A stretch of DNA of 5,944 bases, taken from IMG/VR virus record IMGVR_UViG_2531839200_000013; one strand, given 5' to 3'. Made by a program: the position numbers. The DNA is from a virus (taxonomy: Duplodnaviria; Heunggongvirae; Uroviricota; Caudoviricetes). The stretch's first letter is position 1, and every line of letters starts with the position of its first letter. Shown here in pieces: positions 3,001 to 5,944 of this stretch.

Positions 3001-5944
3001 AAAATTGATGCTATAGCGTTTTTTGGCAGCAAAACAAAGCTTGCCAATGTCGCAGGAGTTAGGCTGGCAAGCGTTGCTGCATGGGGGGAACTGGTTCCTG
3101 AAGGTCGCGCGATGCGCCTGCAAGAGGCATCCGGCGGGGAACTTCAGTACGACCCCAAAGTTTATGACGAATATCGTAAGGCAAAGCGGGCGGGGCGGTT
3201 GAACAATGAAAATCACCACTGAACAGGTTTGTGAGGCTCTGGATACCTGGGTATGCCGACCAGGAATGACACAGGAGCAGGCGACGATATTAATCACGGA
3301 AGCATTCTGGGCTCTGAAAGAACGCCCGAACATCGATGTTCAACGCGTCACGTTTAATGATGGCGAGGTTGATCAACGGGCGCTGGGCGTTAACCGGGTG
3401 AAGATATTCGAACGCTGGAAAGCTATCGACACCAGAGATAAGCGTGACAAATTCACGGCGCTGATTCCGGCAATTATGGAGGCTATCCGGATCAGCGATT
3501 TCAGATTGTATTGTGAAATTACTGACGGAAAAAGCATTACGTACATGATCGCCGGGTTAAACAAAGAATATGGCGATGTGGTGGAGTCCGGGCTGCTTTT
3601 TGCGGATCCAGTTGTTGTGGAACGTGAGACTGACGAGCTTATAGAAAAAGCTATTGCTTTCAAGCACGCGTATCGTCAGCAATACCAATATTACTTTGCA
3701 GATAAACAAATGTCTGCCAGGGGGGCGTATGAGTATCGATGCACTACGATGGGCTAAAAAGGTGAAAACCGGCAGTTCATCCAGTAAGTCAGTATTGACC
3801 TGGCTTGCTGATATGTGCGGTGCCGATTTGTGTGCATACCCGTCTGTATCTGCACTGGCAGAAGTAACGGAACTGAACAAAAAGACTGTGCAGGACAGCT
3901 TACGACACCTGATGGAGATTGGGTTAATTGTTGATACCGGTGAGAGAAAAGGCAGAACAAAGCAAATTGTGGTGTACCGACTTATCGGTGTAGAAGAAAG
4001 TGTTGCCGAGCCTGAATACACCCAAAAACGGGAGTCTTTAAAGGTGGGTAAAATTGGTGCTGTTAATAAAAACAGTACCGAAAATGGTTATGTTTCAGCA
4101 CAAAACAGACCCAAAAACAGAACTCTTAGCTGCATGGAAAATAACCAAAGACACCCAAATTTTCCATCAAAGACACCCAAAAACGGATCACGGAACCCAA
4201 AGGAACCCAAAGATCTAAACCCCACACATAACGCACGCGAGAGTGCTCCGACCAGTGAGCAGGAAGTTTTGTCGTTACAGGCAGCCCCCCCTGTATTCCT
4301 GTATGGCCTGAGCGAACCCATCGGAAAATTCCCGATGAGCGATAGCTGGTATCCGTCACGGGATTTTCGACGACGGGCTGCGTTGTGGGGGATGGCTTTG
4401 CCGGAGACAGAATTTACACCTGCTGAACTTGCCGCCTTCCGGGACTACTGGGCAGCGGAGGGGAAAGTGTTTACGCAGATTCAGTGGAGCAGAAATTCGC
4501 CCGTCACGTAAATCACGTCAGGGCGCAGGTTAAACCAGTCAGCAAAGGGGTAAACCATGCAGCAGCACCAGGTGGCACCGCATCACGGGCAGTTCAGGAA
4601 ATTCGGGCAGCACGTGAGCAGTGGGAACGTGAAAACGGATTTATCAGCGACGGAAACGGCCTGGAAGCTGTGGGAACTCATGGGGGTGGTTTATTCGAAC
4701 CGCTGGATCCAGAAGAACGGGGCCGCACCTTCGAAGCTCTGGATTGCACAGATTGGCGCGATGACTGAGCAGCAAATCCGGCAGGTCTGCCGCCAGTGCA
4801 TGGACCGCTGCCGGGCGGGTGAAACATGGCCTCCGGACCTGGCTGAGTTTGTGGCACTGATTTCGAAAAGCGGAGCCAATCCATTCGGTCTGACGGTGGA
4901 TGCTGTGATGGAGGAGTACCGCCGCTGGCGCAATGAGTCCTGGCGATACGACGGAAGTGATAAGTACCCGTGGTCTCAGCCTGTGCTGTATCACATTTGC
5001 CTCGAGATGCGTTCAAAGGGGATTGAGCGCCAGATGACCGAAGGGGAATTAAAACGGCTTGCAGAACGGCAACTGACGAAATGGGCAAAGCATGTTAGTA
5101 ACGGCCTGAGCGTTCCGCCAGTCCGGCGACAACTGGCGGCCCCCAAACGCCCGTCGGGGCCAACGCCAATTGAGTTGCTGAAACAGGAATATGAACGCCG
5201 GAAAGCGGCTGGTTTTGTTTGAGTTGAGAAGTGATTTTTTACCGGGAGGAAATTTATGGAGACTGTTTTTGACGCACTGAAAGCGATGGGAAAAGCCACG
5301 TCGGTATAGCTGGCTGCGCGACTTGATATCAGTCGTGAAGAAGTACTGAACGAGCTGTGGGAACTGAAAAAGGCTGGCTTCGTTGATAAAAGCGTATACA
5401 CCTGGCGTGTGGCTGATAACAACGTTCAGCAGGAACAGCCAGCGCCAGAAGAAACCACCACGGCAACAGAAGCGAAAATCTCAGAGTGCGATTTAACCGC
5501 GACGATTGAACAACGCGGACCACAAACGGCGGATGAACTGGCTACGCTGTTCGGTACAACATCCCGCAAAGTTGCTTCAACGCTGGCAATGGCAATCAGC
5601 AAAGTGAACCGCCCCGGGTTTCCTGGAGAGTGTTTTATCTGTGAACTCAGGCTGCCAGATCATCGTTTCCGATGGAAGCATAATAAGCTTTTTCTGCTTC
5701 TGCCGGAGGAGTATGGCCCAGCCTTCCCAGCAATCGTCGATTGTTATACCAGTCCACCCACGTTAGTGTGGCCAGTTCCACTTCTGCACGGTTTTTCCAG
5801 CTCTTACGGTGTATTACCTCCGCTTTGTAAAGACCATTGATGCTCTCAGCCATCGCGTTGTCATACGAGTCGCCTGTACTCCCTGTTGATGCCAGTAATC
5901 CGGCTTCTTTTAGTCGCTCCGTATAGGCCAGTGACACATACTGA

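Follow-up and report, generated by a model that had tools for sequence, protein, structure and literature searches.

The locus analyzed here raises the question of whether a reading frame near the end of a prophage contig, which opens at an ATG, meets an amber codon after 17 codons, and later runs into an insertion sequence, is a single gene that was inactivated twice. Our answer is that a ydaW-like gene is dead twice over, with hits that fell at different times (the TAG, and later IS629), and we put the probability of this reading, ordinary prophage decay, at roughly 0.9. The first-pass annotation's proposal of one winged-helix prophage gene decaying under two independent lesions is therefore supported, with the addition that the lesions are separated in time.

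Locus and gene context

The window (the whole 5,944-nt stretch of DNA that was analyzed) is the entire draft contig AOEN01000050.1 of GCA_000335095.2, with which it is identical byte for byte. Positions 5100-5604 match many O157:H7 chromosomes at 100%, where they are annotated as "replication protein P" and "DUF1627 domain-containing protein." In the Sakai genome, the locus lies in prophage Sp9, adjoining ompW, with the gene order repressor, cro-like gene, ydaT-like gene, O, P, ydaW-like gene, 54-amino-acid open reading frame (ORF), paa/adfO, and hokD. The ydaW-like gene is hence the first gene downstream of the O/P replication genes, and the stop codon of the P-like gene lies 33 nt before ATG 5256 (Table 1). 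The frame that starts at this ATG, with its GGAGG and its TAG at 5307-5309, is present as originally described, and its continuation, put at about 100 codons up to the IS629 end at 5605, comprises 98 sense codons that end ...TLAMAISK at 5603, base 5604 being the first of codon 117. No RNA family was found anywhere in the window by Rfam at gathering thresholds, and a promoter and terminator scan of 5000-5944 returned nothing exceeding shuffled expectation.

Table 1. Features of the ydaW-like locus in the window (positions are those of the window)
Feature	Position	Strand	Remarks
Replication gene O (DnaT-like), frameshifted	3729..4511	+	One G lost from GGG, now GG at 4486-4487
Lambda-P-like replication gene, upstream neighbor	4761..5222	+	Pfam Phage_lambda_P, 1.3e-16; annotations
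Shine-Dalgarno GGAGG	5245..5249	+	Read in the sequence; 6-nt spacer to ATG 5256; same ATG in intact homologues
Codons 1-17 of ydaW/DUF1627 gene, METVFDALKAMGKATSV	5256..5306	+	Identical to residues 1-17 of intact 244-aa homologues
Amber codon TAG, from GAG (Glu18), G-to-T at 5307	5307..5309	+	Allele common to the O157:H7 lineage
Codons 19-116 and first base of codon 117	5310..5604	+	Rest of winged helix 1, linker, helices 1-3 of winged helix 2
AAG, inferred 3-bp target-site duplication	5602..5604		Left out by both left- and right-hand draft contigs
IS629/IS1203 (IS3 family) right end	5605..5944	-	Terminal inverted repeat from 5605 onward; element cut off by the contig end
IS-encoded out-of-context tail, 78 codons, VNRPGFPGE...CKDH	5605..5840	+	Stop at 5838-5840; would end any read-through product

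A remnant of a YdaW family member

By homology, the segment 5256-5604 is identified as the 5′ 47% of a ydaW-family (Pfam DUF1627) gene of the lambdoid prophage Sp9 at the ompW site of O157:H7. Intact homologues have 244 amino acids and begin at the ATG equivalent to 5256 (O145 PPompW and Stx2a phage records, including LC567818, and O55:H7 TB182A). The intact protein scores 308.7 bits against Pfam DUF1627 (PF07789), far above the cutoff of 28.1, and the window fragment 5310-5604 still reaches 45.8 bits against the same cutoff while spanning only positions 1-33 of the 155 in the profile. The full DUF1627 architecture (two winged helices plus a C-terminal helical domain, about 240-255 amino acids) is present in the intact relatives and absent in the window copy, which is a remnant of a DUF1627/YdaW member and not a functional member. 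Its position right after the replication genes is that of the family: a P-like gene precedes it in the window, in Sakai Sp9, in O55:H7, and in the PPompW phages, and ydaV takes this place in Rac. Among PHROGs, the intact protein falls in PHROG 630, the PHROG families being annotated as of unknown function.

An AlphaFold model of the intact homologue, built from a diverse alignment of 43 sequences (mean pLDDT, 82), places a first winged helix at residues 1-52 (helices 4-11, 16-23, and 27-40; wing 43-52) and, after a disordered linker (residues 53-76), a second at residues 77-131 (helices 77-87, 92-99, and 103-115; wing 120-131). Residues 132-177 are predicted to be disordered, and the C-terminal helices occupy residues 178-243, including a 30-residue helix at 201-230. 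In this model the TAG falls inside helix 2 of winged helix 1 (residues 16-23) and not, as had been suggested, in the recognition region of a helix-turn-helix, the recognition helix being the one at 27-40. The IS629 joint lies just past helix 3 of winged helix 2, so that the wing and everything C-terminal to it, 128 of 244 residues (52%), are lost; an insertion thought to sit at the 3′ end of the gene is in fact mid-gene, after codon 116 of 244.

The amber codon is real and shared across O157:H7

Over the gene portion contained in the window, G5307T is the sole difference from phage LC567818, and both the 17 codons ahead of the stop and the 98 that follow encode residues identical to one 244-amino-acid protein. 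Since T5307 is the only base that differs, the ancestral codon was GAG, encoding Glu18. Of the two ancestral codons proposed from the sequence, CAG and GAG, the alignment to intact homologues thus selects the latter, and it also supplies the original C terminus, 128 residues beyond the joint. Glu18 is found in 117 of 117 aligned cluster representatives (90% clusters). The N terminus is conserved as well, with METVFDALKAMG occurring there in 100 of 120 cluster representatives (approximately 112 when single-residue variants are counted) and the N-terminal block being retained in relatives down to about 25% identity. Because the residues upstream of the stop are conserved in homologues, the 17 codons before it are coding, and a gene start downstream of it is rejected.

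A 61-mer around the TAG has a 100% match in 293 complete E. coli records, and all serotype-labeled rows among the matches listed are O157(:H7), Sakai included. The rows for O55:H7, O145, O121, and O111 show one mismatch each to this 61-mer and keep the GAG. Direct reading gave the same picture, with TAG in PV15-279, F3113, PA48, Sakai, and two further draft assemblies and GAG in O55:H7 TB182A, where a 244-amino-acid CDS is annotated from the same ATG, and in the O145 phage. The TAG is not a sequencing error, as the allele occurs in 293 complete records, in Sakai, and in independent draft contigs. A sense codon in the orthologues, homologous coding sequence flanking the stop, and a genuine stop together characterize a nonsense pseudogene. 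With respect to its age, the distribution indicates that the amber mutation is old, having arisen after the split from O55:H7 and become general in O157:H7 genomes. The first-pass annotation had regarded it as possibly a recent single-base change; the single base holds (G5307T), but not the recency, given that all O157:H7 genomes examined carry the TAG and O55:H7 does not.

Start-site annotation and possible residual expression

Public annotations mask the TAG lesion. PGAP calls a CDS from CTG 5310, the codon immediately after the TAG (WP_077744273.1, 226 amino acids), and in Sakai, ECs_5720 is called from the GTG equivalent to 5409 (193 amino acids); neither entry carries a pseudogene flag. 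If one of these were the true start, 5256-5306 would be a noncoding leader and there would be no nonsense lesion at all. Such a start is used by both public annotations, and each product is recorded on about 1000 contigs in the protein collection, but we consider it extremely improbable, since every intact homologue begins at the GGAGG-bearing ATG and the conservation of residues 1-17 extends to relatives of only 25-35% identity. In the model, these residues make up helix 1 and the start of helix 2 of the winged helix, at a pLDDT of 94-98. Furthermore, the shorter calls occur solely where the TAG is present, CTG 5310 is merely the codon following the stop, and, on reading the sequence, neither CTG 5310 nor GTG 5409 has a ribosome-binding site. 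A real start downstream of 5309, the finding that would have undone the original interpretation, is excluded by the shared ATG and the invariant Glu18.

A related possibility is that a protein shortened at its N terminus, consisting of winged helix 2 and the C-terminal domain and reinitiated at GTG 5409, is a functional O157:H7 variant, in which case the amber codon would represent adaptive remodeling. With the TAG fixed in O157:H7, most strains show no additional damage in the 226 codons downstream: the O157:H7 allele differs from the intact allele at 1 position in 735 nt, with no other mutations in the gene, so that nothing independent points to relaxed selection once the amber codon was in place. 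However, the lineage is young, with 2 lineage-specific changes in the 3.4 kb compared (window 2201-5604), and the lack of further damage is therefore uninformative. Together with the missing ribosome-binding site ahead of 5409 and the removal of the C-terminal domain by IS629 in the window contig and its clade anyway, this makes a functional short variant very unlikely. Low-level reinitiation at CTG 5310 or GTG 5409, or read-through, may nevertheless take place as far as the sequence alone shows.

As regards amber suppression, a search of glnV for the supE44 anticodon found the supE44 allele in 155 of 5,424 glnV-carrying genomes, and of these 155, the 60 that were listed are without exception laboratory derivatives of K-12, with genome sizes of about 4.5-4.8 Mb. 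The Sakai annotation of Sp9 itself contains only the tRNAs ileZ and argO. Both observations speak against the notion that the TAG is read through by a host amber suppressor tRNA and that the N-terminal part of the protein is still made, and a suppressed product would, in addition, still finish in IS-encoded junk. We accordingly give suppression next to no weight. The suggestion that the gene could still be expressed in a supE-type host fails as well, as truncation by IS629 would prevent a normal product. A gene that was nonsense inactivated in the O157:H7 lineage at codon 18 remains the preferred reading of the first lesion.

The second lesion is an IS629 insertion

The sequence TGAACCGCCCCGGG starts at 5605, and the IS629/IS1203 terminal inverted repeat (TGAACCGCCCCGG...) lies exactly at the junction, with a body identical to known copies. 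Complete IS629/IS1203 elements carry orfA and orfB with a programmed -1 frameshift; the contig holds 340 nt of IS629 that cover the C terminus of orfB, the transposase C terminus being encoded at 5647-5937 (minus strand). In O157:H7 PV15-279, an annotated IS3-like element of the IS1203 family ends in a stretch that matches positions 5604-5944 at 100%. The 78-amino-acid ORF internal to the IS, to which the ydaW-like frame is joined, is called a "hypothetical protein" in the draft annotation. In a collection of 15 billion proteins, the fusion ORF had no exact match with any of three possible starts; the 78-amino-acid ORF alone was present, and it is shared by IS629 copies generally.

The window contig shows a single IS junction and ends 340 nt into a multicopy repeat, and queries of 845 nt and 120 nt found the 5604/5605 junction in none of 5,426 complete E. 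coli genomes. These observations would fit a chimeric assembly at the contig end, or a deletion or inversion that was mediated by the IS and ended here, in place of a simple insertion. Against this stand the exact coincidence of the joint with the start of the IS terminal repeat and the behavior of independent assemblies, in which the IS629 site is the breakpoint of draft contigs from about 20 samples. Two left-hand contigs (GCA_003755005.2 and GCA_012649985.1) are 100% identical to window positions 1-5601 and end there; these left-hand contigs represent 13 or more samples (the first contig in 13 samples, with 6 similar places). On the other side, three contigs from other assemblies begin with GTCGTCTG, at the equivalent of the base after 5604, and continue directly into the downstream Sp9 genes (54-amino-acid ORF, paa, and hokD).

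IS3-family insertion is expected to duplicate a 3-bp target. As the left-hand contigs end at 5601 and the right-hand contigs start after 5604, exactly AAG is missing on both sides, and the event would be a simple IS629 insertion with an AAG target duplication. The paired accession numbers (EED1214114/EED1214377 and EEQ8079887/EEQ8079983) suggest that both gene halves are in the same assemblies. A chimera or rearrangement is consequently quite improbable, and the IS629 insertion is, as judged from these breakpoints, neither an artifact nor unique to the window strain.

Order of the lesions

Every contig broken at the IS629 site lacks, in addition, 1 bp in gene O, which reads GTGGAGCAG instead of GTGGGAGCAG. 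In F3113 (complete) and PA48 (draft), we observe the TAG and the O frameshift together with an uninterrupted DUF1627 gene. Since these two genomes have the TAG and the O frameshift without the IS, the order of events is TAG, O frameshift, and IS629, and the comparisons as a whole demonstrate both lesions, the ancestral codon, the distribution, and the relative order. A G-to-T change first turned the Glu18 codon GAG into an amber codon in O157:H7 after the O55:H7 split, from which point ribosomes loading at the GGAGG/ATG would halt after 17 codons, within the second helix of winged helix 1. The -1 frameshift in gene O then occurred in an O157:H7 sublineage, and IS629 finally inserted after codon 116 in a subclade of this O-frameshift sublineage, fusing the frame to 78 junk codons.

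The practical consequences of this history lie in typing and annotation. The codon 18 TAG of Sp9 ydaW separates O157:H7 from O55:H7 and the non-O157 STEC examined, and the nested series of TAG, O -1 frameshift, and IS629 at codon 116 provides ordered markers for an O157:H7 subclade. The WP_077744273.1 and ECs_5720 models should be flagged as pseudogenes. The biological importance is small, the locus being one more example of O157:H7 prophage decay.

A possible scar in gene O

As a side observation, PV15-279 carries an IS629 copy in gene O, oriented like the IS of the window and with a GGG target duplication, and the 1-bp O deletion takes out a G from precisely the GGG that flanks this copy on both sides. 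A 253-amino-acid "partial" O protein ending at that codon is found on a few draft contigs. We had also considered IS629 in O as a common O157 state, and this was dropped, the IS-in-O junction being found in one complete genome only. The local single nucleotide polymorphisms are uninformative on the kinship of PV15-279 to the clade with the O deletion, the O157:H7 strains being identical save for Sakai-specific changes. IS629 moves by copy-out-paste-in transposition and is removed by the IS-excision enhancer IEE. Since IEE-dependent IS629 excision has been reported to leave deletions "from a few nucleotides" up beside the IS (PMC9943667), the 1-bp deletion in O is plausibly the footprint of an IEE-promoted imprecise excision of IS629, which would make this deletion a candidate natural footprint of such an excision.

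Function of the intact protein

Intact YdaW most likely serves lambdoid and Rac-type phages as an accessory or regulatory protein that binds nucleic acid as a dimer, a role that is suggested by the position in the early rightward operon after O/P, the modeled tandem winged helices, and the long C-terminal helix. The literature found on DUF1627/ydaW offers mentions of synteny, one list of predicted transcription factors, and a single screen hit. Specifically, ydaW is listed with the E. coli transcription factors of unknown function (PMC9308461), and K-12 ydaW was among the prophage genes that eased the toxicity of the retron-Sen2 toxin RcaT, as a "blocker" in an overexpression screen (bioRxiv 10.1101/2020.06.22.160242). 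Because K-12 ydaW scored against RcaT, the fixed amber codon could be read as adaptive loss or remodeling of an accessory protein in the interplay between phages and defense systems, with the deletion in O standing separately as an IEE excision footprint. If this were true, the later IS629 insertion would show that the remnant is dispensable. We regard this adaptive reading as unlikely and retain ordinary prophage decay as the explanation of the locus.

Comparison with known systems

Among the closest known systems is YdaW of the Rac cryptic prophage of K-12 (b1361), a member of the same family that also lies directly after replication genes, with a good Pfam DUF1627 score and a PHROG 630 match of 2.5e-121. 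It shows 91% identity over its first 151 residues and has Glu18. K-12 YdaW is also damaged (186 amino acids), diverging past residue 151 and lacking the C-terminal helical domain, but its C-terminal truncation results from a Rac deletion, with no nonsense mutation at codon 18 and no IS. The replication modules differ as well, the window copy following an O/P-type (lambda-like) module and the Rac gene following ydaU/ydaV (DnaC-like). Sakai ECs_5720/WP_077744273.1 represents the same locus and the same TAG allele as the window, but without IS629 in the gene.

At the level of structure, a Foldseek search of the PDB with the intact model gave weak matches to the tandem winged-helix proteins ScpB, ESCRT-II subunits, and the SelB C-terminal domain (E value of about 3e-4; TM score of about 0.2-0.3), and a profile search of PDB sequences gave the single winged helices of AspA, Z-alpha, ArsR, and MarR (E value of about 1e-3). 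The long-helix C-terminal domain of the intact homologue has no counterpart in ScpB, ESCRT-II, SelB, AspA, ArsR, or MarR. The matches reflect resemblance of the fold only, from which neither shared function nor membership follows.

With respect to the second lesion, IS629 is behind many O157 polymorphisms that involve gene inactivation or deletions (PMC9943667). The insertion in the window is like the known O157:H7 IS629/IS1203 polymorphisms in its exact terminal repeat, its identity to other copies, its strain- or clade-specific site, and its inactivation of a gene, and its site is absent among complete RefSeq genomes; we observe no difference in kind. Decay by point mutation and IS629 in the O157:H7 prophage pool is well documented, and the twice-inactivated ydaW-like gene of Sp9 is a case of this known kind.

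Masking of the DUF1627 pseudogene in public annotation

The DUF1627 pseudogene is hidden by public annotations, each of which starts the reading frame downstream of the amber codon. The PGAP protein WP_077744273.1 begins at a CTG at window position 5310, the codon directly 3' of the TAG (CDS at 6211-6891 of L001, the PV15-279 locus), and Sakai ECs_5720 begins at an internal GTG equivalent to window position 5409, without a ribosome-binding site (CDS at 11916-12497 of L011, the Sakai Sp9 locus). Each of the two models is found on approximately 1,000 contigs. The window (1-5944) is the entire draft contig AOEN01000050.1 of assembly GCA_000335095.2 and ends 340 nt into IS629, so that other contigs hold the far junction of the element as well as the gene's 3' half.

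Frameshift in replication gene O and O157:H7-specific changes

We observe that a GGG run in replication gene O is short by one G, leaving GG and a frameshift, and that among complete genomes this 1-bp deletion is common to F3113 only. PV15-279, alone among complete genomes, carries an IS629 copy exactly at this GGG, in the same orientation as the IS629 of the window and with a GGG target duplication (L001 4073-4078 and 5379-5384). The deletion may thus be the scar of an imprecise excision of IS629, of the type promoted by the IS-excision enhancer IEE.

With respect to changes specific to O157:H7, only two were found across a compared span of 3.4 kb (window 2201-5604), namely, G5307T and a GG dinucleotide just upstream of gene O. 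All O157:H7 strains examined have this GG, whereas O55:H7 TB182A and the PPompW phage of O145 have TT.

Features in the window
Feature	Position (window)	Remark
dicB-like	268-456	minus strand
GG/TT site	3724-3725	4-5 nt 5' of O start codon, within 3' end of ydaT-like gene
Replication gene O	3729-4511	
GG remaining from GGG run	4486-4487	within 4480-4492

Although a dicB/ydfC/dicA-dicC-like module is present, an Rfam scan of the whole window returned no family at its gathering score, DicF included.

Differences from Sakai

A stretch of ~85 bp (window ~783-888), flanked by the imperfect direct repeats CCGCTGCGCCATTTCGCG and CCGTGCGCTTTCGCG, is present in the window, PV15-279, F3113, and PA48 and absent from Sakai (L011 7375-7392). 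Sakai appears to carry the derived state both in this loss and in each of its further differences, at positions 551, 569-571, 2295 (a 1-bp indel), 2829, and 2988.

DUF1627 relatives elsewhere

A different DUF1627 paralogue, with the GAG intact, accompanies a DnaC/IstB-type replication module on a contig of GCA_048589645.1 (L016 3001-3359) and on 21 similar contigs. It runs out at the contig edge, at most 2 nt from the codon at which IS629 breaks the window's gene (...AMAIS), which could reflect a repeat boundary common to the two or a further IS target at this point. In the K-12 Rac prophage, the first 151 residues of YdaW (L019 3753-4313) are 91% identical to the intact protein and the sequence diverges thereafter; the protein ends at 186 aa and has no C-terminal helical domain. 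The damage to K-12 YdaW is an independent event, which suggests that genes of the DUF1627/YdaW family tend to decay when they reside in cryptic prophages.
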